Shown: piece by piece, positions 17,701-58,100 of the stretch
Layout: every line of letters begins with the position of its first letter
Position numbering within the stretch: position 1 is the stretch's first letter
Origin: Rubripirellula sp.
Lineage (GTDB): Bacteria; Planctomycetota; Planctomycetia; Pirellulales; Pirellulaceae
Length of the DNA stretch: 64,000 bases
Assembly (NCBI GenBank): GCA_965216875.1
Contig: OZ244207.1
Coordinates: forward strand, 7,776,001-7,840,000
Direction of reading: 5' to 3'
Made by a program: the position numbers and the translations under genes
Notes under the pieces: generated by a model
What the model saw: only the letters and a program-made list of their open reading frames with translations
Told to the model about the DNA's origin: nothing
Database searches by the model: none

Positions 17701-20016
17701 GCGCGAGTCGATTCCTTTCAGGATTCGGTCGGCGGCCGACGCCAGCGATTCGGCGCGGCGGTTGCGTTTTTCGACCAGCTGGACTTTGCGAGATTCGAAG
17801 GCGGCGTACACATCGTCGCGGCGCTGGGCAAGTTCGACGACAAACTCATCAAACTCGGCAAACCTGCCTTCAAGTTCTTCGAGTTGGACCATCACCTTCG
17901 TCAGGTATTCGTCACACTTTTCGGGCGAATCGCAAACGTCAAGGTAGCCGGCCGTTGTCTGTTCAAGCAGTTTCAGTTGCGACGCAAACTCGGCCTTTCC
18001 TTCGACACTGACAAGTTCGCCAACACGCGCCTTTAGCGAACTACGGACTCGGTTCAGTGACGCGTAGACATCGCCGATCGCGTCGATGATTTCGGTTCGT
18101 TTGGTCGCGTCGTCGATTCGAAGGTTGCTGACCGTTTCGGTCAACAGTTCAAGTTGGTCGGCGCCCTCGTCGATTTCTTCTTCGAGTTTCTTCGCGTCGG
18201 CGACGGTCGCCACGTCGGTCACCTGTTGGCCCGCCGCTTCAACACGCTGGACATAGGGATCAAGCGAGCCGGGCGTCAGCAGGAAATCGACGCACCGACG
18301 GCTGACGCGTTCGCTTCGCTCGGAGGTGGCTTTTTCGAGTTCTTCGACGACCGTTTCGTCGACGTAGCGGAGTTCACGTAGACCAATGGCATGTCCACGT
18401 TGCTCGCGAAGTTGGGCAAGCGACGAAACGAAATCGTCGATCGATTCAAAGCGGCTCCGTTCGATCGATTTGATCAATGCGTCGATTGCCGTTTTGACTT
18501 CGCCCGTTCTCGCCTGAGTGTCACGGCGAACGCGGACGACTTTGTCGAACTCTTCGACGGCCGCAGTCGCCGCTTCGCGAATCTTTTGGACCGGCTCGGC
18601 AAGTTTGAGCGTCTCTTTTTTATCGATCCAAAAGTAGCTGTCCAAGATGTCGGACGCTTTCTTGACCAGATCGAGATAGAGTCCTTCGTAGCTATCGTCC
18701 TTGTCGATCAGCTGCAGGATCTCGCTACATTCGGCCATCCCACGCACGATCTCTTTGTTCCCAATCTTGAACAATAGCGAGTCGGTTTGGTTGTCGGGAA
18801 CATAGTTGCCGCTGGTGAATGGTGTCTGCCAAATCTGAATCGCGTGATGTTTCTGCGGATCATCTTGCGCTTTGAAGCAGACCATTTCGCCTTTGTCAAA
18901 AAGCGTTTGGCCATGGCAAACGAGCGGCGTTTCGACCGTTTGCTTGATCAGGTTGTACAGAAGCTGAATGTACGTACCTGATTCGTTGTTGTAGAAGATG
19001 TAGAGGTAATCTTCGCCGTTGGGTGACGCGACCGTGCGTTGGTAACGCATGTCGCTAAGGCCATGATCGAATCGCTTGAATTCGCCCGTTTGCAAGTAGT
19101 AGCCACCTGGGAAAATCAGCCCATGGTCACCAGGCAACATGACGCAGGAGTGTTCAATTTCGTCCAGACGCATCGCCTGTTCGATCTTGCCGTTGAACAC
19201 AAGGTAGCGTGTTGTGTCTTCTTGGTAGGGCTTGATCCTTAGCAGGACAAGATTGCCTACGACCGCGTAGTGAATCTCGGCATCGTCGAGCGTTTGGTCC
19301 GGGTGGTCGACTGGCTCGGCGTAGATGCCTTCGCCCGATTCGGTGTTGTTTTCGACCTTGACGGTCAAGTCGCCGCCGACCGTTTCGACAAAGACTTTGT
19401 CTTCGATCGAGATGTGCGGGTGCTTGCCATAGTGATGTTGATCGCGTGTTGTTCGCGTCCAGCGGAATTCATGTTGCGCCGGGTCGCGGACTTCGTGTTC
19501 ACTGCGGTTGTCGAGGTACTCGATGTGATCAGGCGTGACTCGCCATTTGAAACTCTTAATGTCACGCGAAGTCTTTCCGACTTGAAAGACCATGTGCAAC
19601 ATTGGGCCGCTGCGAAAGAAACGCGAGAATCGCGTGTCTTTGTAAAAACGGTAGAGTTCGTGAAAGTCGCTGTCAAAACGCTCGTCGCCGATCAGCGACA
19701 GGTCGGCTGCATGGAATTGGTGGTCGACAAACCGATAAGCTGAAAAGACGTCCGCGAGTGAGATGTCTGTCTTGAGTCCGAATTGGACGTTGTAACCAAA
19801 GAGAAACTGATCGCCGACAGAGACCAGATCTCGCGGGACACAGTTGTGCTCGGTCGTGACGCGTTCAGTCGATATGAGCGACGTTTCGATGTTGCCGAAA
19901 ACATCGGCCCGTGCATCGTTGAGCTTCGCCAGACGCTCTCGCAAATCCGATGACGCATCGCGCAATCGGTTGCGGAGCACTTCGTAGGTTCCGGCTGCGA
20001 GTTGTGCTTCGGACAT
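14755..20016 (-). CDS. Large AAA+ ATPase (DUF3686 / 'DNA repair ATPase' annotation family)
   Basis: 1753 aa: beta-rich N-terminus, long coiled coil, Walker A LISPPGYGKTT, Walker B MLYLDD, sensor MAGNPY, LSNRAD. Confidence 0.9.
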   Translation of the reverse strand: MSEAQLAAGTYEVLRNRLRDASSDLRERLAKLNDARADVFGNIETSLISTERVTTEHNCVPRDLVSVGDQFLFGYNVQFGLKTDISLADVFSAYRFVDHQFHAADLSLIGDERFDSDFHELYRFYKDTRFSRFFRSGPMLHMVFQVGKTSRDIKSFKWRVTPDHIEYLDNRSEHEVRDPAQHEFRWTRTTRDQHHYGKHPHISIEDKVFVETVGGDLTVKVENNTESGEGIYAEPVDHPDQTLDDAEIHYAVVGNLVLLRIKPYQEDTTRYLVFNGKIEQAMRLDEIEHSCVMLPGDHGLIFPGGYYLQTGEFKRFDHGLSDMRYQRTVASPNGEDYLYIFYNNESGTYIQLLYNLIKQTVETPLVCHGQTLFDKGEMVCFKAQDDPQKHHAIQIWQTPFTSGNYVPDNQTDSLLFKIGNKEIVRGMAECSEILQLIDKDDSYEGLYLDLVKKASDILDSYFWIDKKETLKLAEPVQKIREAATAAVEEFDKVVRVRRDTQARTGEVKTAIDALIKSIERSRFESIDDFVSSLAQLREQRGHAIGLRELRYVDETVVEELEKATSERSERVSRRCVDFLLTPGSLDPYVQRVEAAGQQVTDVATVADAKKLEEEIDEGADQLELLTETVSNLRIDDATKRTEIIDAIGDVYASLNRVRSSLKARVGELVSVEGKAEFASQLKLLEQTTAGYLDVCDSPEKCDEYLTKVMVQLEELEGRFAEFDEFVVELAQRRDDVYAAFESRKVQLVEKRNRRAESLASAADRILKGIDSRVRKMESTDEIAAYFAGDLMVEKVRDIIESLVELDDAVRVEDLQSRMKTIREDATRQLKDRQDLYEDGGDVIRLGSQRFAVNTQPLDLTTVLRGGELCLHLTGTQFFEPLVNDELIAARDLWNQELVSENSDVYRGEFLAVDLFERLHAEHRSDMPDLAWVQEAMGGRFDEGYAKGVHDRDAFAILTKLLEIDRSIGLLRHNPTTRTASLLWFYKLLDAKNRKAMTDWIGGFAKLAKAYPSARPAEEFRARLTELAEADQQRWGPLFAADTKPQRMAAYLFDELTHAPKKPVVSGKAAALHSEFSDSIPKVDREKLLSSAIKTTESDPVRAFILARNWADAFLATHTKGTDADAPTGVNPQEHLDELAWLVMTGGPSTMNVLDAEVAQSIEGLAGSHGVIQSGSMLVHYHQLLRRVRRYREDVVPRFRSLHETKTRIVDEGREDMRLDEFKPRVLTSFVRNRLLDEVYLPLIGDNLAKQMGSAGEDKRTDRMGLLLLISPPGYGKTTLMEYVANRLGIVFMKINGPAIGHGVTSLDPAEAPNAAAREEIERLNLALEMGDNVMLYLDDIQHTNPELLQKFISLCDATRKIEGVRNGRTRTYDLRGRRVAVVMAGNPYTESGERFQIPDMLSNRADVYNLGEIIGDSADAFEMSYLENCLTSNRVLAPLSTAPPEDARAIIRAAERDSLEGIEMQSNISMDQVRDMFEVTRKLLRVRDVVLRVNRAYIRSAAQADAYRTEPPFKLQGSYRNMNRIAERVAGVMNEQELQSLIVSSYEQDAQTLTTDNEANVLKFKEIMGILSSDEKERWDSIKYAYVESVRMSGMDSEDQAGQLMRQLASMRDGLESIRAVISRAIASSGDGAETRMDERIDSLRHTLSASGSQLAETLQATSRQLEKISEQQALAPPDQKVFVQHKVPRVLADLVKGQFHLMQEWLRPILDESLENGRDLNGLKTQLDAMLESYQKVESAFESNQGDPPNAG

Positions 20017-20168
20017 GACGGGTGACGTGGGAAAGGCGGGTGAGCCGCGAGGCTATCCCCGGGCGGGGACAGCGTCGCACGCATTGGCGGCATTGGAAAC
20101 GCATCAGTGACGCATTGCTTTGCCCGCCCCGATGGTTCCTCGAGGCGGGCGAGCGAGATCGTCGGTCA

Positions 20169-22304
20169 CTAGGCCTGCTTGCCGTTGGAGACGGCCGGTG
20201 CAGGAGCGGCAAGCAATCGGCTGGCCTTTTGATCGGTCACGTTCGCGGTGCTCGCGACCGAAAGCAGGCTGGTCAATTGGCTTCGCACGTCATCGGTCTT
20301 TGCCAGTCCCATCATTTTTGCGATCAGGGCGGCGATCGACAGGTCTTTGACGCCATCGGTGTCGAGATTGAACTGCTTCATCAAGCCTTGAAGCTGCTCG
20401 CGGAAGTACTCCGCATTCCCGTCAAAGAAAGTGTCTTTGATGTCGGTTGCCACTTTACTGTTGTAGACGAATCGGTCGATCGCCTTGCCGCCCTTGACGG
20501 CTGAGGTGATCTGATCGAAGAACTCGCCGTCGCCACCGACGATGTCGATTCGAGCGGCACGCAGTGCGTCGCCCACCACACCGGCTTGGCTTTCGGCAAT
20601 TCCCTTCTGAGCATCGATCGCTGCGATCTCGACATCCTTTTCTTTCTGCAGGCTGAGCTTGAACTCTTCGTGCTCTTTGCCGACGCTGTCGAGTTGCTTC
20701 ATCGCTTCGGCTTTCTCGGTGATACCGTTCGCTTCGCTCGTGTACTTCTCGCGAGTGACGTTGGCTTCGGCCAATCCCTGCTTTTCGATCGCTTCGGCTT
20801 TGGCTTCGATGCCCTTGGCTTCGGCGGTCATCTGCTTTTGCAGCACGGTCGCTTCGGCAGCCCCTTCCTTCTCCAACGAGACGGCTTTGGCTTCCTGGAC
20901 CTTGGCTTCGGCCAAGCCAGGTGCAGCCTTTTCGGCGGTTTCGGCTTCGGCCAACATCTTCTTGGCGGTCGTTTCTTTTTCGGCGGCGTCTTTCTTCGCT
21001 TCGGCTTCGATGCGAATCTTTTCGGCCAACAGTTCGCTCGCTTCCTTTTCGGCTTGAGCAAGCTTGGTTTGACGAATCAATTCTTCTTGGGCTTTCATCT
21101 CGGCCGCAGTCACTTGGACTTTCTTGGTTCGTTCGGCCAAGGCGATTTCGTGAGTGTCCTTGATGCGTTCTTCTTCTTCGACGACCGCTCGTTCGACGGC
21201 GACACGTTCGCGGATCACTTCTTGAATGTTGCGTTTTTCGACTTCGATCGCTTTTTCTTTCTCGACGTCGGCGACACCTACCACGCGTTGGCGTTCGGTG
21301 CGTTCGAGTTCACGATCACGTTCAACGCGTTCGATTTCGACCGCATCGGTCTTCTCTTTGTTGCGTTGGGCAACCAGGACCTGGCGGGCTTTGTTTTCTT
21401 CGGCGATGCCGATTTCTTCTTCGGTCGAAATGCGAGCACGTTCCGACTCGAGTCGTTGCTCTTCTTCGACTTTCTTGGCAGCAGCTTGTTCGCGAGCACT
21501 CACTTCGGCAATCTCGCGTTTTTGCTTTTCGACTGCTTCGACCCGTTGGCGTTCGAGCGCGAGAATGGTTTCCTGAGCCTCGACGTCTTGCTTCTTGAGC
21601 GTCTTTTCTTTGTCGCGAGTGAACTGGTTCTCTTTGACACGTTCGTTGGCCGTCAGTTCGGTGATCTTTTTGATCCCCTCGGCGTCAAGAATGTTCGAGG
21701 GGCTAAGCAGATCCAGCGGCGTTTGCTCGAGGTAGTCGATCGCGGCGTCATCAAGTTTGTAGCCGTTGAGATCGGTGCCGATCACTTTCAGGATTTCGGC
21801 TTTGAACTTGTCCCGTTGGTCGTAAAGATCAACGAAGTCGAATTGCTTACCAACCGTCTTGAGCGCTTCGGAAAACTTTGCGTCAAACAGCTCGCGTAGC
21901 GTATCGATCTCGCTACAACGACGCGCGCCGATCGATTGGGCAACTTCCTTCATTTCTTTTTCGGAAGCGTCGACGCGGACGAAGAACGCGACTTTGATGT
22001 CGGCGCGAATGTTGTCGCGACAAATCAATCCGGCACTGCCCTGACGGCTGATTTCAAAGCTCTTCAGCGTCAAGTCCATGTACTCGATCCGATGCAACAT
22101 CGGAACGATTAGCATGCCGCAACGTGATTTCACGATGAACCCACCAACACCCGTTTTCACGATCGCTTTGTCAGGTCCAACGACGATGTAGAACTTTTTG
22201 AATGCGGCAAGCACTAGCACAGGCACCGCAAGCACCAAAGCGATTGCGACAATCACTCCGGGGCTCGTTAGGTCAATAAAGGAGAGAGGCATTGCAAGTG
22301 TCAC
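20169..22304 (-). CDS. Flotillin/SPFH family protein (YqiK-like)
   Basis: N-terminal TM, SPFH region (GLICRDNIRADIKVAFFVRV, AKFSEALKTVGK, LDAEGIKKIT), long EA-rich coiled coil, IDIVGGDGEFFD. Confidence 0.9.
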   Translation of the reverse strand: MTLAMPLSFIDLTSPGVIVAIALVLAVPVLVLAAFKKFYIVVGPDKAIVKTGVGGFIVKSRCGMLIVPMLHRIEYMDLTLKSFEISRQGSAGLICRDNIRADIKVAFFVRVDASEKEMKEVAQSIGARRCSEIDTLRELFDAKFSEALKTVGKQFDFVDLYDQRDKFKAEILKVIGTDLNGYKLDDAAIDYLEQTPLDLLSPSNILDAEGIKKITELTANERVKENQFTRDKEKTLKKQDVEAQETILALERQRVEAVEKQKREIAEVSAREQAAAKKVEEEQRLESERARISTEEEIGIAEENKARQVLVAQRNKEKTDAVEIERVERDRELERTERQRVVGVADVEKEKAIEVEKRNIQEVIRERVAVERAVVEEEERIKDTHEIALAERTKKVQVTAAEMKAQEELIRQTKLAQAEKEASELLAEKIRIEAEAKKDAAEKETTAKKMLAEAETAEKAAPGLAEAKVQEAKAVSLEKEGAAEATVLQKQMTAEAKGIEAKAEAIEKQGLAEANVTREKYTSEANGITEKAEAMKQLDSVGKEHEEFKLSLQKEKDVEIAAIDAQKGIAESQAGVVGDALRAARIDIVGGDGEFFDQITSAVKGGKAIDRFVYNSKVATDIKDTFFDGNAEYFREQLQGLMKQFNLDTDGVKDLSIAALIAKMMGLAKTDDVRSQLTSLLSVASTANVTDQKASRLLAAPAPAVSNGKQA

Positions 22305-23044
22305 GACGGAGTCTCCGGTTGAAGCTGGGTGACTTTGTAAACCCGTTTGTCTTTGTCGTAGCCAATGATGCGAACTTCCGTTCCTTTCGGAATGTTCGCA
22401 CCATCAGTCTGTACGTTCAGAAGTAATGGCGAGGCATCAGTGCGAAACTTCGCTTGCCCGAATTCAGGTGTCGCTTCGTGCGTGCAAATCTCGCACGTTG
22501 CGCCCAAGATGATTCGGTTGGTGTAACTGGGCGGATCGATGAACTGGCCAAGGATCGGTTGCGTGATACCTTTGGTAATGGCAACTGCAATGACCAGATT
22601 GCGAACCGACAACAGCGTGCTGGACAGCCAGCTTGGGCCGTACTGATTGCTGTCGAAGTTATGCCAGAGGTAGTACGACACCATCCAAAAAGCGACGGTG
22701 AAGATCCCCCCCCAAATCACAACTGGCACGCGACCAAAATTGGTTGCGCGAATCGTTAGGCCGGCAATGCCTCCGAACAGATCGCTGCCAACTTCCACCC
22801 CGTCGGCGTGGGCATCGACGCCCATGTCAACGTCGGCGTTGACGCCAGGGTCCATGTCGATGCCAGGATCGAAATCAATACCGGGATCAACGTCGATGTC
22901 GATATCGGGTGCATCGAATCCGAAGTCGGCCAGTCCCATGACGGCGACCAGCGTGTAAACGACCATCAAGCATGCGAGAATCGACGCCGGCCACACGGGA
23001 CCAACGAACATTCGCTCGGCTACTTCTATTACCGTTTGGGACAC
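22301..23044 (-). CDS. YqiJ-like (DUF1449/NfeD-type OB-fold) membrane protein
   Basis: TM, acidic DIDVDPG repeats, NFGRVPVVIW, two TMs, C-terminal FGQA...LLNV...KG..V.I OB-like region; 4-bp overlap with the flotillin gene. Confidence 0.8.
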   Translation of the reverse strand: MSQTVIEVAERMFVGPVWPASILACLMVVYTLVAVMGLADFGFDAPDIDIDVDPGIDFDPGIDMDPGVNADVDMGVDAHADGVEVGSDLFGGIAGLTIRATNFGRVPVVIWGGIFTVAFWMVSYYLWHNFDSNQYGPSWLSSTLLSVRNLVIAVAITKGITQPILGQFIDPPSYTNRIILGATCEICTHEATPEFGQAKFRTDASPLLLNVQTDGANIPKGTEVRIIGYDKDKRVYKVTQLQPETPS

Positions 23045-23254: not shown

Positions 23255-24427
23255 CTAACTGAGCGCATCGAAGCGGTCGTCCGGATTGCTCGGTTCAGGC
23301 AAATCGGAGGGCAGGTTTCCCCGCTGAATCATCGAATTCAGGTCAAGCACACCCGCAAATTTGCCCTCGCCGTCAACCACGGCAACCTGCCGGCCGCGAT
23401 GGCCCACACGCAACACAACGCTGTCGAGCGCTTCGTCGATATGTACGGGTGTATCCGATTCATTGTGGTTGATCAGTTGGCCTGCGGGCGTCATCGGATC
23501 GATGTTCATCGCGGTCGCTTTCGAAACTTCTTCAAGACGCAACATGCCGATCACTGAGCCTGTGATCGAAAGCACGGGAAGTGCTGTCGCCTTGCTTGTT
23601 TGCCAGCGTCTTGCGACTTCCGAGAGGGGCATGTCCATCGGCAACGCTTCCAATGATCGAATCATTGCCTGCCGCACGGTCAGCCCACGGACCGACTCGG
23701 TCACTTCAACTTGACGAGCTTCGGCCATGCCCGCGAACGCGATGAAAACGGCGATCAAGATGGGGATCGGGTTTGGATTGCCGGTGAAGACGACGAGTGC
23801 GATCATCGAAACGGCACACAGAATTCCGACGCGCGACGCGATCACGGTTGCTTTGCGATAATCGGTGATCATCGCCAAGACGCTTCGAAAGACTCGACCG
23901 CCGTCCATCGGAAAGGCTGGGATCATGTTGAAGATCACCAGCGTGATGTTGACCATCAGCATGTAAAACGCGTACTTCGAAAACGATGGACTAAACATCG
24001 TGTCCGTTTCGACCGCGATTTCAGCTTGCTGCGACACGCCCATAAACAAGTTGATGCCGCCCACGACAACAAAGCCAATGCCAAGCAGCGTGGCGATCAC
24101 AACATTGACCGCTGGTCCAGCAATGGCGACAACAAGTTCTTGCCAAGGAATGCGCGGCATGCGTTGCAGTCGAGCGACACCGCCAATGGGCAGCAGCGTG
24201 ATGTCGATTGTCGGGATGCCAAATTTGCGAGCGGCGAGGGCGTGGCCATACTCGTGCAGCGTGACGCAGAAAAACACGCCAAGCACCATCGTGATCGCAA
24301 AGGCCATCCCGGCAATCCCTTCGTCACTCGCTTGGTAGGCAAAGAAGCCGATCAAGAGTGCAAAGGTCCAATGAACGTAGAGACCGATTCCGAGGAAGGT
24401 GCCGAGTTTGAGTCGTCGATCTAACAT
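23255..24427 (-). CDS. Site-2 protease (M50) with C-terminal CBS domains
   Basis: LHEYGH, LLPIGGVA, IAGPAVN, FNMIPAFPMDGGR, CBS-like tail. Confidence 0.92.
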   Translation of the reverse strand: MLDRRLKLGTFLGIGLYVHWTFALLIGFFAYQASDEGIAGMAFAITMVLGVFFCVTLHEYGHALAARKFGIPTIDITLLPIGGVARLQRMPRIPWQELVVAIAGPAVNVVIATLLGIGFVVVGGINLFMGVSQQAEIAVETDTMFSPSFSKYAFYMLMVNITLVIFNMIPAFPMDGGRVFRSVLAMITDYRKATVIASRVGILCAVSMIALVVFTGNPNPIPILIAVFIAFAGMAEARQVEVTESVRGLTVRQAMIRSLEALPMDMPLSEVARRWQTSKATALPVLSITGSVIGMLRLEEVSKATAMNIDPMTPAGQLINHNESDTPVHIDEALDSVVLRVGHRGRQVAVVDGEGKFAGVLDLNSMIQRGNLPSDLPEPSNPDDRFDALS

Positions 24428-49529: not shown

Positions 49530-50213
49530 GTGACACATGGTAAGCGGCGAACCTTGTTTTTTGCAGGGACCGACACCGACGTTGGCAAAACCTATGTCGC
49601 AGCCACGGTGGCTCGCACTTTGGTGGCAGCTGGCCGTCGTGTAGGCGTTTACAAGCCGGTTGCGAGTGGTTGTCGTGTCGAAGATGACTTTCGCGTTGCC
49701 GATGATGCGTTGGCACTTTGGAATGCCGCGGGGCACCCACAAACTCTTGATGAAGTTTGCCCACAGCGTTTTCTCGCGCCGCTCGCGCCGCCGGTGGCCG
49801 CTGCCGCCGAAGGAAGTGTGGTTGATACCGATCGACTCGTCGATGACGCCGGTGCGTGGGATTCCGACTACGATCCCTTGATCGTCGAAGGGGCTGGTGG
49901 CCTGATGAGTCCAATTGCCGAGGGAATGTTGAACATCGACCTCGTGGCAAAGTTTGAGCCTTGTCGGTTGGTCATCGTCGCAGCGGATCGATTGGGCGTG
50001 ATTCATCAAACGATTGCTACGTGCGAAGCGGCAAAGCACCGAGGCGTCACGCCTCATGGGATCGTGCTGAGCCAGCCTGCTCAGGAGTCGGATGAGTCGA
50101 CCAACAGCAACCTCGAACAATTACGCCGCTACTGTGATGTACCGGTCATCGGCCATGTCGCGTTCGGTCAAACCCGAGTCGACGAGTCGATGATTCAGAA
50201 GTTGCTGAACTGA
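49530..50213 (+). CDS. bioD: Dethiobiotin synthase
   Basis: GTDTDVGKT, YKPVASG, VEGAGGLMSP, LGVIH. Confidence 0.95.
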   Translation: MTHGKRRTLFFAGTDTDVGKTYVAATVARTLVAAGRRVGVYKPVASGCRVEDDFRVADDALALWNAAGHPQTLDEVCPQRFLAPLAPPVAAAAEGSVVDTDRLVDDAGAWDSDYDPLIVEGAGGLMSPIAEGMLNIDLVAKFEPCRLVIVAADRLGVIHQTIATCEAAKHRGVTPHGIVLSQPAQESDESTNSNLEQLRRYCDVPVIGHVAFGQTRVDESMIQKLLN

Positions 50214-52378
50214 CGCAACAAACTGTGTCCCGCGAGACGATCCTGGACCCATGCGGTGCCAGAATCGAGCAGTGTTTGTCCCACTGTTTTTTGATTGTCA
50301 TCGGCTGATACACGAACAGATTGTTGATCGTGTAGGTGCGCGGACAATGTCGTCTTCGGTGCGAGGCGAACTTCGTACCGTGGTCGGAGCAATCGCATGG
50401 TATCGCTCTGTTTGCCAGCGCCGGTGGGGTCGACGGTGCGGACGGCGAGTGGGCCCCCGTACTGGGCGCTCAGTGAGTCGGCTGGCAGTCGGTCAGTTGG
50501 CGTGGGAGCAACCTCGGTCACTTCGCCAGTGTGTTGCAGACTTGTGCGGTCGAGCGTTGTTAGCCGCACAGAGTCTCCGATGCGGTCTTGCCATTGGTTT
50601 CGGTCCGTCTGGTCAACCGTGAACACCACCTCGATTTCATCGGGACGAACGATGCGCATCAGCGTTGTGCCTTCGCGGACGTATTGGTCCAGCCAATCCG
50701 AGAGATCATGCTCAGAGGCGATGACACCGTCGCTGGTTGCGACAATGTCCATTTTGTCGAGTTGGTTACGACGAATCTGGATCTGTTGTTTCAAACTATT
50801 GATTTGTGAGCGTTGTGCATCGATGCTGGCCGTCGCCGACTGAGCGACGAGGCGTCGGAAATTCAGGTTGGCCTTCGCAAGTTGGACGACCAAGTCGTTG
50901 TAGTCTTGCTCGAGTTCTCGGTTCTCGATCATTGCAAGTCTTTGGCCCGCTTCGACGTGCTCGCCTGTGCTGACGAAGACTTCGCGAACGAAACCATCGC
51001 TCGCGCATCGCACCGTTTCAGGCTCGTGAAATTGAATGACCCCAGTCTCAACCCCCGAGCCAGGCATTGGAATCGACGCGATCACAAACAAGATCGCTGC
51101 CGTTGTCAACAGTCCCAAAGTTGCACGGATCGGACGAAGTGTTCGAATCGTTTTTGGCAGCCCCACAATGGCTTTCGTCATCAAGGTAACGATGGCTGCA
51201 ACGGCAAGAAGTGAGCCTGCACCTTGGAACAAGTACTCTGCGGCCAGCAGGAGTCCAACAAGCACGACGACGCGCCATGCCAGGATGGCGACTCCGTAGA
51301 TTCGAAAGAATACCCCGCGTAGACCCCGCGGCGGATGACAGCCTTCGCTCGAGGTGCCGAGCACGATGCGCGAGGCCAGGCGACTCCAGTACGACGACGC
51401 GTCGGAATAGAGGTTGGGCAATCTGACCAAGTCAACAAGGATGTGATAGCCATCAAAACGCATTAAAACGTTTGCGTTGAAGATCAACGTGACCGCTGAC
51501 GCCGTGACTGCGATGGTCGCTGCGATGTGCCTGATTTCAGGTGAATGAGACAACCCAAAGACCACAACCGCCATTGCTGCGACGGCAAGTTCGGCCAGCA
51601 TTCCGGCTGCGGCGATCGCGATTCGGTCTCGGCGGCGGTTGAGTTGCCACGATCGGCTAACGTCAACAAACGGAAGCGGAAGCAATAGGATCCAGAGTAT
51701 GCCGAATTCATCGATATCGACGCCCATGCGTCGTGCGACGACCGCGTGAGCAGCTTCATGGATCACCCTGAGCACGATTGCCGCGAGACCAATTTGCCAC
51801 CACAGACCATTGTGAACGATTGGAGCAAACGCAGCATTCCACCCCGAAAGGTCACCAATCACTTGCGTGATTGCGTAGACGATCAAGGTGAGGGTCGCGA
51901 CCAGTGCGTATCGATTCGTCCAGGGCGCCGTGTAGCGGGTGAGTGTGTCGATTAGACGCGTGGGCGTTTTGAGCGAAGTCTTGACGCAAAGCGGCGAGAT
52001 GCGGACTCGTCCTTTCGTTCCTGCGTGTTTTCCGATTCGACGCACGTCGCGACTGACGTCCGCCTGCGTGGCCAGACCAGTCTTTTCAAGCCAGGCGGCG
52101 ACCGCTTCGGCTTCGCTTTGATCGAGCGCGATCTCGGGTCGCCCCGTGCGCTTAGCCAGTGCTTGCGTTGCTTCCGACGCGGTTTGGAGGTCCGTGTTTC
52201 CGTCCAGCATGGAGGCGAACGCGTATTCGGCGAACCCGATTTCGTAGTGCATGCCCGTTGCGGGATTGGTGACCGAATAGCTCGGTCCGCCAGCGAATTG
52301 GTGTGGAGTCCAAACCAAATCGGGACGCATTTGAAGGCAGGTTTCAGCTGCTGTGTCGTGCTTGGCCAATTGCGACAT
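50195..52378 (-). CDS. M50 metallopeptidase fused to N-terminal winged-helix (PqqD/RRE-like) region and C-terminal HlyD-type adaptor
   Basis: IHEAAH, AAAGMLAE, FNANVLMRFDGY; N-terminal YSVTNPATGMHYEIG..EY.F...LDG; C-terminal DGFVREVFVSTGEHVEAGQ plus coiled coil. Confidence 0.85.
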   Translation of the reverse strand: MSQLAKHDTAAETCLQMRPDLVWTPHQFAGGPSYSVTNPATGMHYEIGFAEYAFASMLDGNTDLQTASEATQALAKRTGRPEIALDQSEAEAVAAWLEKTGLATQADVSRDVRRIGKHAGTKGRVRISPLCVKTSLKTPTRLIDTLTRYTAPWTNRYALVATLTLIVYAITQVIGDLSGWNAAFAPIVHNGLWWQIGLAAIVLRVIHEAAHAVVARRMGVDIDEFGILWILLLPLPFVDVSRSWQLNRRRDRIAIAAAGMLAELAVAAMAVVVFGLSHSPEIRHIAATIAVTASAVTLIFNANVLMRFDGYHILVDLVRLPNLYSDASSYWSRLASRIVLGTSSEGCHPPRGLRGVFFRIYGVAILAWRVVVLVGLLLAAEYLFQGAGSLLAVAAIVTLMTKAIVGLPKTIRTLRPIRATLGLLTTAAILFVIASIPMPGSGVETGVIQFHEPETVRCASDGFVREVFVSTGEHVEAGQRLAMIENRELEQDYNDLVVQLAKANLNFRRLVAQSATASIDAQRSQINSLKQQIQIRRNQLDKMDIVATSDGVIASEHDLSDWLDQYVREGTTLMRIVRPDEIEVVFTVDQTDRNQWQDRIGDSVRLTTLDRTSLQHTGEVTEVAPTPTDRLPADSLSAQYGGPLAVRTVDPTGAGKQSDTMRLLRPRYEVRLAPKTTLSAHLHDQQSVRVSADDNQKTVGQTLLDSGTAWVQDRLAGHSLLRQFSNF

Positions 52379-52380
52379 CC

Positions 52381-54195
52381 CTACATCCAAAACTTTGAAG
52401 CTTGCTGCAGGCAACGTTTGAGGACGACATTCCAAAGTGGACGTTTTTCGCCAATCACTTTGGCGACACCACTAGCGCCTGGGCGGAGGATTCCGCCTTC
52501 GTTGTCGATCGAAGCGCGAGCGATGAACACGTTTTGCCCACCACGGATCTTGGCGCTCGATTGAATCGAATCGATGGTTGCGGTCATTGATTCGCTACCG
52601 AAGGCGTCAAAGGCAACTTGCACGGTCATGCCTTCGGCGATTTCAGCGAGTTCGTCTTCCGGAATCGCTATTTCGAGCCAGAGCTTGTCGAGGTTGGCAA
52701 CTTCGGCGATCAATTGGCCCGTTGTGACCGGTGCGCCTTGAACCCCATCGAGTTCGCCGGCAATGATCACACCCTCGATGGGCGAAGTGACGGCAAGGTT
52801 GTTTTGGCGATGTTGCACCAACTCGATTTCCTGGTCGATGCGAGCCAGTTCCAATTCAGCTAGTTGTTGATCGGCGACTTGGTCACGGGCGCGATGGACA
52901 TCACGCTGTTTGAGAGCCCGGTCTTGGTCGGCTCGAAGCGCAGCCAGCTGGATTTGCAACTCCCGATCGTCCATCGTCGCGATCAAACTGTCGTAACGAA
53001 CCAGGTCGCCGATGCGGGCATGCGTGTTGCTGAGCGTGCCAGCGTGAGGTGCAACGATGAAACCGCGGTTTTGGGGAATGAGTGTCGCTGACGCAGGGAC
53101 CCGATAGTGGACCGGAAGGAATCCGATCGCAATCAGAACGGCGGAGGCGAGCGCAAAGGTTCGGTGAGCGTTGAGAAGTGATCCAAGGTTGCCCCAGAAC
53201 TTGCTAAATCCGGATTGGTGGTTTGCACGCCAAAGCGAAAGGCTCTTGCCGACAAGATCGCCAATCTGTGAGAGCTGTTCGCGCTGGAACATCTCGCGAT
53301 CCGAACCGACGCAAGAGATCACCGCCTGCAATACGCCATGGTCGTCAAACACAGGAATGCTGCCGACGACGCAATCGGATTGACGCGGCCGATCACTGAT
53401 CTGCTCGGCAAGTCCGCGGTGGGCAAGGGTAGCGGCCTTGTTTTCGTCCAGGTCGGGCCAACGGGTGACTTCGCGGCGCAGGAGCGTTTCGGCGAAAACG
53501 TTTTGCCACTTGGATTCGGCGATAGGATCGCCCGAACCGCCGATTGCCGCTACCGAGATTCGCTGGTCGGTCTCGGAACGCACAAAGCCAATTGCGGTTT
53601 GGTAGGCACCGGTATGAATGGCAATCAGATCGACGACGTGTTCGGCAAGTTGTCGTTGGTTGTCACTCGCAAAGATCAAATGTTGTAGTTCGGCGAGCCA
53701 CAAATGATCAGCTGCCCTGTTTGTTCGGGAGCCTGATTCGCGTTGAGTTTGCCACAGCCTTCCGTACGAAGCCGCAAGTTGCAGTGAAAGTACAAACGGT
53801 TCGACCGCGGCTTGACCGAGTTGCAACGCAATGGTCACGACCGCCGTCTCCCCTTCGATCACGCCGATCGGTGTCGCGATCAACGTGGGCAATTCAAGAC
53901 GCGATAGCTCGGTACGTTGGTTCGCCAAAGCCGCAAGGGCAAGCTGAGTGACACGCGCCGCACCAGCCGCGTCAAAGTGCTCCTTTGACCCATTGACCAA
54001 CGTCGCTGTGACCTGGTTGTGGTCGCTAAATCGTTGCACAACGCAACAATCGGCGTTGGTCATTTGCGCGGCGAGTTGTCCCAGTTGCCCCAGAAAGTCG
54101 TTTGCATCGAGGGTCGGATCGTTGTTCGATGCAAGTGATTCAAGATGCTTGGGAAGGGACGCCAAGTCGAGGGTCACTGCGGAAGGTTCCTTCAT
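52381..54195 (-). CDS. HlyD-family periplasmic adaptor with N-terminal GAF-like region
   Basis: About 340-aa soluble N-terminus, one TM, then IVAPHAGTL, coiled coil, SPIEGVII, LRPGASGVAK. Confidence 0.82.
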   Translation of the reverse strand: MKEPSAVTLDLASLPKHLESLASNNDPTLDANDFLGQLGQLAAQMTNADCCVVQRFSDHNQVTATLVNGSKEHFDAAGAARVTQLALAALANQRTELSRLELPTLIATPIGVIEGETAVVTIALQLGQAAVEPFVLSLQLAASYGRLWQTQRESGSRTNRAADHLWLAELQHLIFASDNQRQLAEHVVDLIAIHTGAYQTAIGFVRSETDQRISVAAIGGSGDPIAESKWQNVFAETLLRREVTRWPDLDENKAATLAHRGLAEQISDRPRQSDCVVGSIPVFDDHGVLQAVISCVGSDREMFQREQLSQIGDLVGKSLSLWRANHQSGFSKFWGNLGSLLNAHRTFALASAVLIAIGFLPVHYRVPASATLIPQNRGFIVAPHAGTLSNTHARIGDLVRYDSLIATMDDRELQIQLAALRADQDRALKQRDVHRARDQVADQQLAELELARIDQEIELVQHRQNNLAVTSPIEGVIIAGELDGVQGAPVTTGQLIAEVANLDKLWLEIAIPEDELAEIAEGMTVQVAFDAFGSESMTATIDSIQSSAKIRGGQNVFIARASIDNEGGILRPGASGVAKVIGEKRPLWNVVLKRCLQQASKFWM

Positions 54196-54503
54196 ACCGA
54201 GCTGCCCTCGCTAGTGCTGGTTGCATCGAACGCGAGTGGGGGCAAACTCGCACGCCCTTGATTGGGTTCGGCTGGCCGTGACCGCAGAAGTTGTCCGAGC
54301 AGGCTGTGCAACCGTTCGGCTGCTGACCAAGGCAGAGCAAGTCGCGTGTGAATAGGCAATTGGTCCGCCGAACCCTCTGATCCAGCGGCCACCACGGCGG
54401 CTCCGCAATCGAGGATCACTTCCTCTTCGCCCGCTGCAGCGATGAACTGGGACGTGTAGAGCAGGTTATGGTTGCTGTAGACGAATTCAACGGGTTGATT
54501 CAT
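54192..54503 (-). CDS. DUF3467-like small protein
   Basis: LYTSQF...EEEVILDC...IHTRLALPWSAAERLHSLL; ATG 54503; 4-bp overlap with the next gene. Confidence 0.72.
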   Translation of the reverse strand: MNQPVEFVYSNHNLLYTSQFIAAAGEEEVILDCGAAVVAAGSEGSADQLPIHTRLALPWSAAERLHSLLGQLLRSRPAEPNQGRASLPPLAFDATSTSEGSSV

Positions 54504-54558
54504 GGCTCGGTCAGTCGTTAGTGCGGATTGCTTCAAAGTCTGGTGTGTTGGAAACGGG

Positions 54559-55464
54559 CTAGCGTGACGGGTTGATTTCGGGCCAATTCCAAGTCGCGAG
54601 CAGTCCGCTACGGAGTTTGGACTCGTGATTATTGATTCGAATGTCGACACGAACGGTTCCCGATTCGCTGTCCGTGATGGGCGAAACGAAATCGATTTTG
54701 CCGTCGACGACACGTTCAAGTTCGCTGAGTTGCAACCTGACTTGTTGCTCTGGTTGCAACTGGAATGCGAGTTTGGTCGGAACGTTCAATCGCAATCGCA
54801 GTTGTTTGAGAATCGCGATCTTTGCAATCACCGGATCCGAAGCCGCCGCGTATTCCCCTTTGCGACGTTTCATTTCGATCACCACACCATCAATCGGTGA
54901 GCGAACGACGTGACTCTCGATTTGGGCTTCGATCCGAGCAACCTCGGCGGCCGCAATATCGATTTTCTCTTGAGCCGCGAGCAATGCGGACTCCGCTTCT
55001 CGCACGACAAGTTCCGCTTGGTCGACCTCGGTTTGGCTGGCGTGCGACTCATCGAACAAAGCGGTCAGGTCCTCATGCCGTTTGGCGGCATGGTTCAGGC
55101 GTGCACGAGCCGATTCGGCTTCACCCATTGCACTTGCACGCTGCTTGGCCACTTCAAGGCTGGCTCGCAGAACAGCATCGTCAAGTCGCGCGATGGCGTC
55201 GCCCGCGGACACTGTCGCACCATCCTTTGCGATGACGTCTGCAAGCCGCCCCGGTTGGGCGACGGCCACTTCGATCGATTCCCACGGTTGCAAGAACCCA
55301 ACCGACGCTCTCGGGGACACCGAATAGGTCGCGGATCTTGCCGCGGTCAGTCTCGGCGTCTTCGCGTCAACGGTTGCGGATCCTGCGATCGCGACCACGG
55401 CGATGAAGGCGTGTCGAACGCAAGAATGCTTGAAGCTCGGTGTGTGTTTGCCCATCCTATTCAT
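54559..55464 (-). CDS. Efflux periplasmic adaptor (membrane fusion protein)
   Basis: Lipoyl halves (QPGRL...GATVSAGDAIARLD; RSPIDGVV), hairpin, FVSPITDSESGTVRV, LRSG. Confidence 0.9.
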   Translation of the reverse strand: MNRMGKHTPSFKHSCVRHAFIAVVAIAGSATVDAKTPRLTAARSATYSVSPRASVGFLQPWESIEVAVAQPGRLADVIAKDGATVSAGDAIARLDDAVLRASLEVAKQRASAMGEAESARARLNHAAKRHEDLTALFDESHASQTEVDQAELVVREAESALLAAQEKIDIAAAEVARIEAQIESHVVRSPIDGVVIEMKRRKGEYAAASDPVIAKIAILKQLRLRLNVPTKLAFQLQPEQQVRLQLSELERVVDGKIDFVSPITDSESGTVRVDIRINNHESKLRSGLLATWNWPEINPSR

Positions 55465-57452
55465 CTCGCTTGACCTGCTGATAAGTCGGGGCGTGTTGAA
55501 ACGTTGGGGCGTGAGAATGCTTTGTGGGGCAAGTCTTCGGCAACATGAACGTCTTCGATCATGCCTTGGAAGTTGGATTGTCCAAAGTAGCCTTGGCCAA
55601 CTTGAGGCGTGCTACTGACGCCCGTGGGTCTGCGTTGGTCTGATGGGCTTGCTGGGCCACTCGATTGGACGGGAGCGGGTACGGGAAGCTGTTCCACTTC
55701 AACCGGATCAAAGTATTGGATCGAGGTCGGCGTCGTGTCCGTTTTGTCCAGAATGGTTGTTGGCAAACAGTTTTCGCATCCGCGACCCACTTCGACGTGT
55801 TCGGCTTCGAGCAGCGTTCCGTCAGCACGTTTCAGGTTGATGAGGGACAAGCCGTAGGTGGTTTCCGCTTCGAGGAATGCAAACTCGGTCGCGGCCAAAC
55901 GTTCTTGAGCGCGAAGGAGGTCTTCCAAGTAGAGATTGACCGAGCGTTCTTCACCGCCCAAACGACGCCAGCGGCCTTCGATGTAATCAACTTCTTCACC
56001 TGCTGCACGCATCGATTGATACTTGGCGAGCATGTCTTGGTAACCGGTCTCGACTTCACGGATCGCGACCTTAACTTCAAGCATCAACGTTTCGACCGTC
56101 GCCTTGAACTGGTTTTGAAGCTGTCGCAGTTCGAGTTGACGACGGCGCAAACGGGCTTTGGCGGCCCGACGGCCGATCGGAACCTCGTAAGTCAATGCGG
56201 CGCTATAGCTTGGTTCACCCACGCTGAATTGATCGACCCAAGCACCACCAATGTCGCTGTTGCCACGAAGGCCTGAGACGTACGCATCGAGCACGACATC
56301 CAGTTGCGGCAACAACTCATTGCGGCTCATGCCAAGTCGGACCGAAGCGGCACGAATCTGACGCAGGGATTGGTTCAATTCTGGACGACGGTCGAGTGCG
56401 GTCGAAAGCGTCGTGACCGGGTCGGTGGCAATGTGGTCGCGCGTTGGCCGATCAACGGGGACGATTTCCAAACCTTCGGTCAACGCGAGTTCCGGATCGT
56501 TGATCAGTGCATTCAAACGATCTTGTGAGTTGCGGATCGCCATTTGTGCTCGCACCAACTCACTGCGACGTTGGAAAACCGCTGCTTCGGTACGAATCAA
56601 CTGACTTTGAACAGTGTCGATCGACGCACGCGCTCGAAGTTCTGATTCGATCTTTTCAGCACGCTCGAGAAGTCGTTGCTTCTGCAAGAGTGAACCGCGT
56701 TCGAGGTAGAGCGCCCAATAAGCGCGAGCGATCTCGAGAAGGTGACTTTGCAGCTGGCGACTGAATTCGTCGTTCGACACAGACGCATCGATATCAGCGA
56801 GGACAATCAGGCTCTTGTTGTAGACTTCGCCAGCGCCACGCAGCAAGGGTTGTGTGTAGTTGACGTTCCAGCGCGAAGTGCCCTGGTTGTTGGGTTGGAA
56901 GAAATTGCTGTTGTTGTTTTGGTGCGCAATCCGCTGGCTCGTTTCGAACGTTCCACCTTTTGTGTTGCGCCGCGAAACACCTGCCGAGCTGCTCCAAAGG
57001 TGGTCGCGATAGCGCGGAGACCCACCGGTGGTCAAAATGTTGCCGACCGGATCGCTGATGTCGTCCCAGCGAGTGTCGAGGAACAGTTTCCAGTCGAAGG
57101 CCGCTTGGGCTTCATCAACCGCTGTCTCACGGATCAGTGGCAAGTCGCCAAACACCTTGACCTGCGCCGAGTGCTGGAGCGCTCGGTAAAGTAGTTCGTC
57201 AAGGGTTGCTTGTATGACCGGTCCACGTTCGACAATCGAGCCTTGCATGTCGTCTTGCCACCATGGTAAGTACGATGCAGGCAGTTTTTGTTGGTGTGGA
57301 GCGGTTGAGTGTTCGAGGTTGTGTGCGGCCAGCGGTATGCGTTGACGGTACTGGTCACGCAACCCGCCTTGGTATTGTTGGGCGTTCGCCTTTCCCAACA
57401 ATAGCAGTGGCCAGATGACCAAGGTCATCAAGGTTGTGGCGCGAATAAACAA
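55461..57452 (-). CDS. TolC-family outer membrane channel
   Basis: Signal peptide, YTQPLLRGAG, AYWALY, RPEL, NELLPQLD, YEVPIGRR. Confidence 0.9.
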   Translation of the reverse strand: MFIRATTLMTLVIWPLLLLGKANAQQYQGGLRDQYRQRIPLAAHNLEHSTAPHQQKLPASYLPWWQDDMQGSIVERGPVIQATLDELLYRALQHSAQVKVFGDLPLIRETAVDEAQAAFDWKLFLDTRWDDISDPVGNILTTGGSPRYRDHLWSSSAGVSRRNTKGGTFETSQRIAHQNNNSNFFQPNNQGTSRWNVNYTQPLLRGAGEVYNKSLIVLADIDASVSNDEFSRQLQSHLLEIARAYWALYLERGSLLQKQRLLERAEKIESELRARASIDTVQSQLIRTEAAVFQRRSELVRAQMAIRNSQDRLNALINDPELALTEGLEIVPVDRPTRDHIATDPVTTLSTALDRRPELNQSLRQIRAASVRLGMSRNELLPQLDVVLDAYVSGLRGNSDIGGAWVDQFSVGEPSYSAALTYEVPIGRRAAKARLRRRQLELRQLQNQFKATVETLMLEVKVAIREVETGYQDMLAKYQSMRAAGEEVDYIEGRWRRLGGEERSVNLYLEDLLRAQERLAATEFAFLEAETTYGLSLINLKRADGTLLEAEHVEVGRGCENCLPTTILDKTDTTPTSIQYFDPVEVEQLPVPAPVQSSGPASPSDQRRPTGVSSTPQVGQGYFGQSNFQGMIEDVHVAEDLPHKAFSRPNVSTRPDLSAGQAR

Positions 57453-58043: not shown

Positions 58044-58100
58044 GTAGTGGACGAGGCCACGAGTCCCGTCAGTCTCGTAGTGGACGAGGCCACGAGTCCC
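58044..58100. repeat. GTAG-type REP, two direct copies
   Basis: GTAGTGGACGAGGCCACGAGTCCC at 58044-58067 and 58077-58100; degenerate inverted partners near 58143 and 58170. Confidence 0.85.

Follow-up and report, generated by a model that had tools for sequence, protein, structure and literature searches.

A pump-less TolC, adaptor and M50 peptidase gene cluster in Rubripirellula: a SecA-less variant of a known module and a candidate exporter of leader-tagged large proteins

How might an outer-membrane channel and three periplasmic adaptors serve export across the cell envelope when no pump is encoded beside them? An energised pump is the defining component of a tripartite exporter. The question is raised by five genes of Rubripirellula sp. 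(assembly GCA_965216875.1), located on the minus strand at 50195..57452 of a 64,000-nucleotide stretch of contig OZ244207.1 (positions 7,776,001 to 7,840,000), which we analysed as a whole and refer to as the window. In gene order, the cluster encodes a TolC-family outer-membrane factor, a stand-alone membrane fusion protein (MFP), a small DUF3467-like protein, a GAF-MFP fusion, and a fusion of a RiPP (ribosomally synthesised and post-translationally modified peptide) recognition element (RRE), an M50 site-2 protease and an MFP. Our analyses show that it has no pump, that its protease retains an intact HExxH motif and aspartate ligand, and that it is kin to a module of SecA_DEAD, M50, HlyD and GAF proteins described in 2015, of which this copy is an intact, SecA-less variant. 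Together the five proteins would probably make up an exporter that spans the envelope without a pump and serves large extracellular proteins whose genes lie elsewhere in the genome.

The five open reading frames (ORFs), defined by a Pfam scan and ORF calls, are tightly packed. Read from the sequence in gene order, the first and third junctions are 4-bp overlaps (ATGA each) and the second and fourth are gaps of 55 bp and 2 bp, figures that assume ATG starts at 54503 for the small ORF and at 52378 for the last. A preliminary description of this DNA had listed five co-oriented genes with the same four junctions, and the sequence bears this out exactly. It had also reported no Walker motif, no RND or MFS pump and the M50 domain as the sole polytopic part, with which motif and hydropathy analysis agree: the Walker A motif is absent from all five proteins, no RND or MFS pump gene lies within the window and no ABC transporter within the cluster, and the one polytopic protein is the M50 fusion, with eight hydropathy peaks in residues 176-457 of its longest ORF. 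Nor does the window contain a short SecA_DEAD gene.

The same description presented the cluster as a new system, and here it must be corrected, since a 2015 publication already contains the gene set, its lack of an ABC pump and the hypothesis of a SecA motor with an M50 pore; we therefore reject the label of an undescribed system. The parts of that computational study covered here (Kamneva, Poudel and Ward, PMC4452313) describe a locus of a short secondary SecA_DEAD gene, M50-HlyD, GAF-HlyD, HlyD and sometimes OEP, with no ABC transporter; the ATPase is proposed to be SecA and the pore to consist of the M50 helices, the biological role is stated to be unknown, and the parts may sit apart in a genome. 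No cargo, RRE or leader is named in these parts; the study was anchored on SecA, and modules in genomes with no second SecA are not treated in them. The window resembles this locus in having M50-HlyD with transmembrane (TM) helices, GAF-HlyD, stand-alone HlyD/biotin-lipoyl and OEP components and no ABC transporter, and its short SecA_DEAD elsewhere in the genome matches the split arrangement noted in the covered text of PMC4452313. It differs in having a DUF3467-like gene and no SecA within the locus. New here are the RRE at the M50 N-terminus, the tandem GAF, the link to LExRxLL-tagged cargo, the SecA-less slot and the frequent failure to find a short SecA.

The RRE-M50-MFP fusion (50195..52378, minus strand; 727 residues from ATG) matches Peptidase_M50 (E 3e-10) and HlyD. 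Its N-terminal 100 residues are an RRE (52031..52354, minus strand), PqqD-like, with three strands followed by winged helices; profile, Pfam and Foldseek evidence concur in this, and the earlier guess of a winged helix-turn-helix was well aimed. A profile built from 93 homologues matched PqqD 3g2b (E 7e-6) and then, weakly, PqqCD, TfuB1 and TbiB1, and when seven homologous N-termini were compared with Pfam PqqD, two scored above the cut-off and three weakly. With an AlphaFold model of the RRE and membrane domain (pLDDT 90.5), Foldseek ranked site-2 proteases first (MjS2P and SpoIVFB, E 0.004-0.009) and leader-bound RREs next (TbiB1 and TfuB1, TM-score about 0.64, E 0.1-0.2). Among NCBIfam families, daptide_HExxH (NF041824) is the best match of the N-terminal half (E 2e-36), scoring 125.8 bits against a cut-off of 300. 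The protease part has the M50 site-2 protease signature, HExxH plus a downstream aspartate in a polytopic domain, and its zinc-protease motif is intact: sequence and alignment identify the zinc-binding and catalytic HEAAH (51746..51760, minus strand; H207, E208, H211) and NANVLMRFDG (51449..51478, minus strand), which provides the third zinc ligand, D309, and has V for the usual P. Across 99 homologues the first H and the E of HExxH, which was not a search pattern, are present in all and the second H in 98; the motif aspartate belonged to the pattern used to find homologues, so that its conservation is partly built in. At 50% identity, an RRE-M50 profile search (E at most 1e-30) gives a family of about 7,000 clusters, and the RRE-M50 half has matches in 2 of 72,556 plasmid records.

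This copy also appears to be maintained. All five frames are full-length, the junctions are tight, every zinc ligand is kept, and GC content at third codon positions (GC3) in the cluster lies within about 1.2 standard deviations of the genome mean; on the same figure, a horizontal-transfer signal from GC3 is rejected. At conserved sites the window M50 has R for K (98/99) and V for P (90/99). The R, the V (the variant noted in NANVLMRFDG) and the H that follows are common to all four closest orthologues, at 46-48% identity, and because these active-site departures are so shared, the sequences make a maintained subfamily more likely than decay. The window copy was not found in two congeneric genomes.

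The preliminary description suggested looking in homologous neighbourhoods for a consistent lack of ABC genes and for SecA-like or giant secreted proteins that recur. Our survey took the best 80 of 548 GTDB loci found in 4 of the 64 parts into which the collection is divided, and added 20 loci that were the top matches in relatives; 56 of these were well flanked, having no less than 7 kb on the upstream and 5 kb on the downstream side. Among the 56, RND genes occur at none (a BLAST count that uses a single AcrB-like protein of this genome as reference, named from its appearance and not by Pfam), ABC genes within 10 kb of 6, and SecA within 8 kb of 29. The six ABC cases are one co-oriented membrane exporter, one ABC-F protein, one lone ATPase and three that are distant or on the other strand; an MFS gene lies near one locus. 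The absence of RND pumps (0/56) and of co-oriented ABC exporters (1/56 present) is consistent, and the contrary proposition, that homologous clusters normally have an ABC or RND gene, is rejected. SecA-like and giant secreted-type proteins do recur near the homologues, and are also present elsewhere in this genome. No RiPP-modifying enzyme recurs among the 106 flanking ORFs scanned. Genes with GGDEF, EAL or HD domains recur beside modules (L025:4912-7395, L064:13230-16460, L073:15512-17248 and L137:5023-8145), which hints at cyclic-di-GMP control, and SapC-family genes lie beside two proteobacterial modules (L043:7662-8477 and L066:15025-15750).

Many of the giant proteins share an N-terminal tag. 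An N-terminal LExRxLL motif is carried by 66 of the 2584 ORFs of at least 400 residues in this genome, compared with 0.96 expected from the internal rate of the motif, and 13 of the 17 ORFs of at least 3000 residues carry it. Tagged ORFs are poor in cysteine (0.11% versus 0.81%), a hydrophobic stretch surrounds the leader in only 5 of the 66, and GGxGxD repeats are plentiful in only 3 of the 22 tagged proteins of at least 1800 residues. Of nine tagged N-termini tested, four pass the NCBIfam LEPR-XLL model, and these are four of the five of DUF4347 or non-planctomycete kind. In 24 of 100 homologous loci, many of them with short flanks, a tagged ORF lies close to the M50 gene.

Co-occurrence across genomes points the same way. 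In Marinobacter the module is present in 5 of 101 genomes, and the same five have a full LEPR-XLL match 2-4 kb away; the remaining 96 contain two partial matches. Their compact operon consists of GAF-MFP, RRE-M50-MFP, an MFP with a weak SPOR match and then an LEPR-XLL/DUF4347 giant, and the locus contains neither TolC nor a short SecA; in one of the five (G128) both the M50 gene and the gene for the giant are fragmented. Among 300 gammaproteobacterial genomes, 45 have the module, 18 the tag and 16 both (15 of 17 tagged genomes once the centre genome is removed), an overlap whose Fisher p of 3e-12 is overstated because kin are not independent. Scoring here covered the top five candidates per genome and all genomes but one, and the 45 include two unpublished genomes (G279 and G434). 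Most genomes with the module and no tag belong to a lower-scoring subclass, and among five of its loci that were opened, three have a variant leader (LEARLMFDGA-like), one has a more distant leader and one is cut off. Taken together, gene neighbourhood and co-occurrence make leader-tagged, cysteine-poor large proteins the probable cargo. No tagged gene lies close to the window copy, the nearest being 77 kb away.

A subset of cargo-type proteins has, in addition, a C-terminal tail that is hydrophobic and conserved, reading GYxxWxxRGG...PxW...DP with acidic residues after it. It ends four ORFs of this genome, three of them tagged (3418348-3421236, 3567946-3577065, 7924795-7938984 and 5821742-5824873), large ORFs beside five homologous modules, including the sister of the window M50, and a short ORF that follows the Marinobacter giant; the loci bearing it are L025, L037, L058, L093, L106 and L131. 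The tail is possibly a membrane anchor or a second protease target.

What would drive export? The genome encodes six M50-MFP paralogues, the window copy included, all with HExxH. One module, module D, is complete (TolC, SecA, MFP, GAF-MFP and M50-MFP, genome 7468744-7477532), and one paralogous module faces a tagged protein of 4729 residues at a distance of 323 bp; the window copy has neither SecA nor a cargo gene alongside. Of three SecA_DEAD genes, one is housekeeping and two are short (673 and 761 residues), with intact Walker A and DExD motifs and no SecA_SW Pfam match. In relatives, a short SecA occupies the slot that corresponds to the TolC/MFP junction of the window (ATGA, 55461..55464, minus strand), as judged from sequence and the relatives' gene order: the closest same-order clusters, located via the small protein in 10 of 350 family genomes, have it between TolC and MFP at all five loci that include TolC. 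No SecA remnant was found in the window, where tblastn with six same-slot SecAs gave nothing better than E 0.48. The short SecA of module D groups with those same-slot SecAs (FastTree, SH support 100) and is the nearest relative of the missing gene in its own genome, and at least two SecA_DEAD matches occur in 60 of 61 genomes (this one and 60 relatives). The simplest reading is that the SecA gene was lost cleanly from the window operon and that the module-D SecA acts in trans. The second short SecA is an orphan (genome 7640010-7642295) that groups with SecAs of modules related to the genome's own module C; since many relatives have a similar SecA no more than about 7 kb from an M50 match, a genome can keep motor and module apart.

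It had been proposed that the energy source, a SecA paralogue for example, is encoded elsewhere. The two short SecAs of this genome fit that proposal; its generality does not hold, as the paralogue is not universal. Among Gammaproteobacteria, 12 of 36 genomes with the module had a short second SecA, as against 0 of 18 without it, the 36 being drawn from the 44 module-positives other than the centre genome and consisting mostly of drafts or metagenome-assembled genomes (MAGs) for which completeness is not given. It appears that the short SecA occurs only with the module, but the module not always with the short SecA. With a short-SecA protein as the query, all five genomes tested yielded housekeeping SecA only. 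The five opened lower-scoring loci all have OEP, GAF-MFP, M50-MFP with intact HExxH and a large neighbouring ORF, a stand-alone MFP was recognised in four, and none has a short SecA, an inventory near that of the window. The window TolC, used as a query in five SecA-less genomes, found no match in four Marinobacter and weak matches in G286, a result that does not in itself show TolC to be absent.

The TolC-family protein (55461..57452, minus strand; 663 residues; Pfam OEP, E 1.9e-23) has a hydrophobic, signal-like N-terminus and a low-complexity C-terminal tail, and is 47-58% identical to the TolCs of same-order clusters. The stand-alone MFP (54559..55464, minus strand; 301 residues) matches HlyD_D23 (E 9e-19), HlyD_3 and, above cut-off, TIGR01730; its N-terminus resembles a signal peptide, suggesting a soluble periplasmic adaptor. 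TolC and the HlyD-family adaptor score under type-I-specific NCBIfam cut-offs. The fourth gene encodes a fusion of two GAF domains, one TM helix and a C-terminal HlyD (Pfam) MFP part (52381..54195, minus strand; 604 residues). Its GAF pair (53218..54168, minus strand), with a long joining helix, is modelled by AlphaFold at pLDDT 91.6 and matched in Foldseek by the tandem GAF of PDE2A 3ibj (E 1.8e-10), which substantiates the earlier term "GAF-like"; Pfam GAF is matched by 25 of 53 aligned homologues and not by the window's own sequence. Hydropathy predicts the single helix at residues 346-364 (53104..53160, minus strand); the GAF pair is presumably cytoplasmic.

The small protein (54192..54503, minus strand; 103 residues from ATG) has no hydrophobic segment, and homologues hold the same position in seven homologous clusters. 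Its designation as DUF3467-like stands in a weaker form: the protein itself has no direct Pfam match, DUF3467 (PF11950) included, and its two closest homologues match that family below cut-off (E 0.02-0.03). It is 28% identical to true DUF3467 over 60 residues (E 1e-6), Atlas features scored 0.86 for DUF3467 as a lead only, and by sequence it is probably a divergent member, which might serve as a cytoplasmic chaperone or adaptor. A true DUF3467 gene follows module C (genome 6049457-6049714), a tandem DUF3467 lies at 2460162-2460680, and in two relatives (L163 and L165) a homologue of the small protein stands beside a large kinase/WD40-like ORF with no module.

These observations can be assembled into a mechanism. 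By analogy with the daptide protease MpaP, the cytoplasmic RRE would, rather likely, bind the LExRxLL leader, and the chances are even that the M50 site would then remove it. The three adaptors might form a mixed ring docked on TolC and anchored by the M50 and GAF fusions, with the M50 helices forming or lining the inner-membrane passage, an arrangement that we propose tentatively. The short SecA of module D (genome 7470840-7472861) would push the unfolded chain in trans, and the GAF pair and DUF3467-like protein could, at a guess, regulate or chaperone. For the whole chain, a pump-less exporter of leader-tagged giant proteins, the odds fall just short of even.

Several observations weigh against it. 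No Foldseek match of the RRE-M50 model reaches E 0.001, the best being 0.004; the window RRE has E at a site where 79 of 99 homologues have R; and the window M50 sits on a long branch (1.51) of a FastTree tree in which branch positions, above all this one, are uncertain. Searches of the five module-bearing Marinobacter genomes recovered housekeeping SecA and no second one, and 24 of the 36 module-bearing gammaproteobacterial genomes gave no short SecA; the trans-motor step is therefore not general, and the short SecA perhaps not an obligatory motor. As regards cargo, 29 of the 45 module-positive gammaproteobacterial genomes have no NF012209 match; of the 56 well-flanked loci, TolC lies within 10 kb at 21, a tagged gene at 16 and a DUF4347 gene at 14; the distance of 77 kb from the window copy to a tagged gene is one that random placement could readily give (P 0.36); and a DUF4347 tree, in which no branch reaches a support of 95, assigns no cargo to the window copy. 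Passage of protein through a site-2-protease fold is something we infer only, and no experimental study of the gene set was found in the literature searched, which excluded most subscription papers; the preliminary description likewise knew of none.

Some of these points suit a version in which machine and cargo are the same and no dedicated short SecA is needed, with housekeeping SecA, the proton motive force or folding outside the cell driving export and the short SecA optional and lost without consequence. We consider this unlikely, although far from negligible: the Marinobacter and gammaproteobacterial absences, the SecA-less lower-scoring loci with nearly the window's inventory and the presence of SecA within 8 kb at only 29 of 56 loci all speak for it, but absence is unproven in genomes that are mostly drafts or MAGs, and in this lineage SecA is the rule, judging by all five same-order TolC loci and the 60 of 61 genomes with at least two SecA_DEAD matches. 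A different view of the same large proteins has the protease cut the C-terminal hydrophobic tail to free tethered cargo, or has another inner-membrane route, with adaptors and TolC serving the outer step only. Site-2-protease substrates are often glycine-rich, as is this tail, which is conserved on four ORFs of this genome and on large ORFs beside five homologous modules; it is, however, found on only 3 of the 66 tagged proteins and has marginal hydropathy (1.3-1.8), the RRE would be left unexplained, and the leaders have no hydrophobic core of Sec type. This view strikes us as distinctly unlikely.

It is improbable that the cluster is an orphan adaptor and TolC set for an ordinary pump of ABC or RND type whose gene lies elsewhere, with M50 and GAF engaged in signalling by regulated intramembrane proteolysis. 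Other ABC proteins are encoded in the genome; an RND-like pump is found on the strand opposite module D, 3.7 kb away; a co-oriented ABC exporter occurs at one homologous locus and an MFS gene at one; and cyclic-di-GMP enzymes recur beside modules. Yet the module has no pump gene as a regular companion, the pump next to module D is paired with an MFP-like neighbour of its own, and it is tagged giant proteins with which the module co-occurs instead. (The pump in question, at genome 7458832-7465069, is followed by a tagged ORF of 637 residues.) The long branch, the R and V substitutions, the missing SecA and the failure to find the copy in two congeneric genomes might be taken for a decaying duplicate that has lost SecA and cargo genes and no longer works, but full-length frames, tight junctions, complete zinc ligands, ordinary GC3 and departures common to four orthologues indicate a maintained subfamily and make decay very improbable. 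Least of all do we expect export and processing of a small RiPP-type peptide in place of large proteins: the daptide leader peptidase is the best NCBIfam match (E 2e-36) and RREs normally bind RiPP precursors, but the score is far below cut-off (126 versus 300), no modifying enzyme recurs among the 106 flanking ORFs, and the neighbours that do recur are giant tagged proteins.

Other features of the window stand apart from this argument. The cluster flanks are unrelated, with a bioD-like gene converging on the 3' end, which overlaps the end of the M50-MFP gene by 19 bp (window 50195-50213), and a trypsin-like gene upstream. Also upstream, at window 58044-58100, a 24-bp unit occurs in two direct copies, and a similar translated stretch near genome position 7924700 suggests an interspersed repeat. 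Promoter and terminator scans gave signals at or below shuffled expectation. Domains specific to planctomycetes occur in the window and, with the labels of the closest homologues, would point to a Pirellulaceae-like organism. Elsewhere the window contains, at 14755-23044, a gene for a 1753-residue DUF3686/AAA ATPase and, upstream of it in a strongly AT-skewed stretch, a 711-residue ORF with no Pfam match, and a second, ordinary M50-CBS peptidase gene (23255-24427) unrelated to the cluster.

A family of about 7,000 clusters that has TolC-type adaptors, no pump and often no dedicated ATPase that can be found would need a different mechanism of export. In its fullest form, which we regard as doubtful, the exporter reading describes a distinct class of secretion system: three adaptors and no pump form the core, the RRE reads LExRxLL, the site-2 protease doubles as signal peptidase and as gate in the inner membrane, a short SecA can be dispensed with, paralogous modules sort cargo classes, and the whole supplies the missing way out for proteins with the planctomycete signal peptide and for some of the largest proteins of bacteria. 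No export route for the planctomycete tag is named in the literature found, and its presence on dozens of the largest surface proteins, here 66 ORFs, becomes a testable question. The window copy serves for such a test less well than the complete module does, yet it shows that clean loss of the motor gene from the operon is possible; the compact Marinobacter operon, with three adaptors and cargo, suits a direct transfer test. The cluster is unusual and testable, but its core idea is published and this copy has neither motor nor cargo genes.

The tag itself has a history. In the section of PMC8567305 covered here, a planctomycete motif, RRLxxExLExRxLLA (Pfam PF07595, credited to Studholme 2004), is proposed as an export signal and reported on 8 of the 10 longest Tuwongella proteins; no export machine is named in that section, and SecA, M50 and HlyD are absent from the main text. 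This motif, like NCBIfam NF012209 LEPR-XLL, is the same N-terminal motif on large surface-type proteins, and its connection to the present module is one that we infer; no paper making the connection was found in the literature searched. For the protease, the closest parallel is daptide MpaP, which the covered part of bioRxiv 2023.03.08.531785 presents as an RRE-site-2-protease fusion that removes an ELExMEAP leader. Both proteins have an N-terminal RRE fused to an intramembrane M50 domain, and ELExMEAP resembles LExLExRxLLA. The window protease differs in carrying a periplasmic MFP and in scoring below the family cut-off, and the module has TolC, adaptors and giant proteins as neighbours in place of short precursors and modifying enzymes.

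With type I secretion (HlyB-HlyD-TolC) the cluster has TolC and HlyD-type adaptors in common and, putatively, one-step export of large cysteine-poor proteins that have no Sec signal. The type I family includes HlyB-HlyD-TolC itself, peptidase-containing ABC exporters and giant-adhesin systems of the LapBCE type. Unlike these, the window cluster has no ABC domain and three different adaptors, and the signal is an N-terminal tag on giant proteins, not a C-terminal signal of RTX type. A membrane-linked peptidase that would cut an N-terminal leader recalls the peptidase-containing ABC exporters, although here it is a zinc site-2 protease with an RRE and not a C39 cysteine peptidase. In operation the cluster would resemble a type I system equipped with a leader peptidase, yet, having no ABC pump, it is not one.

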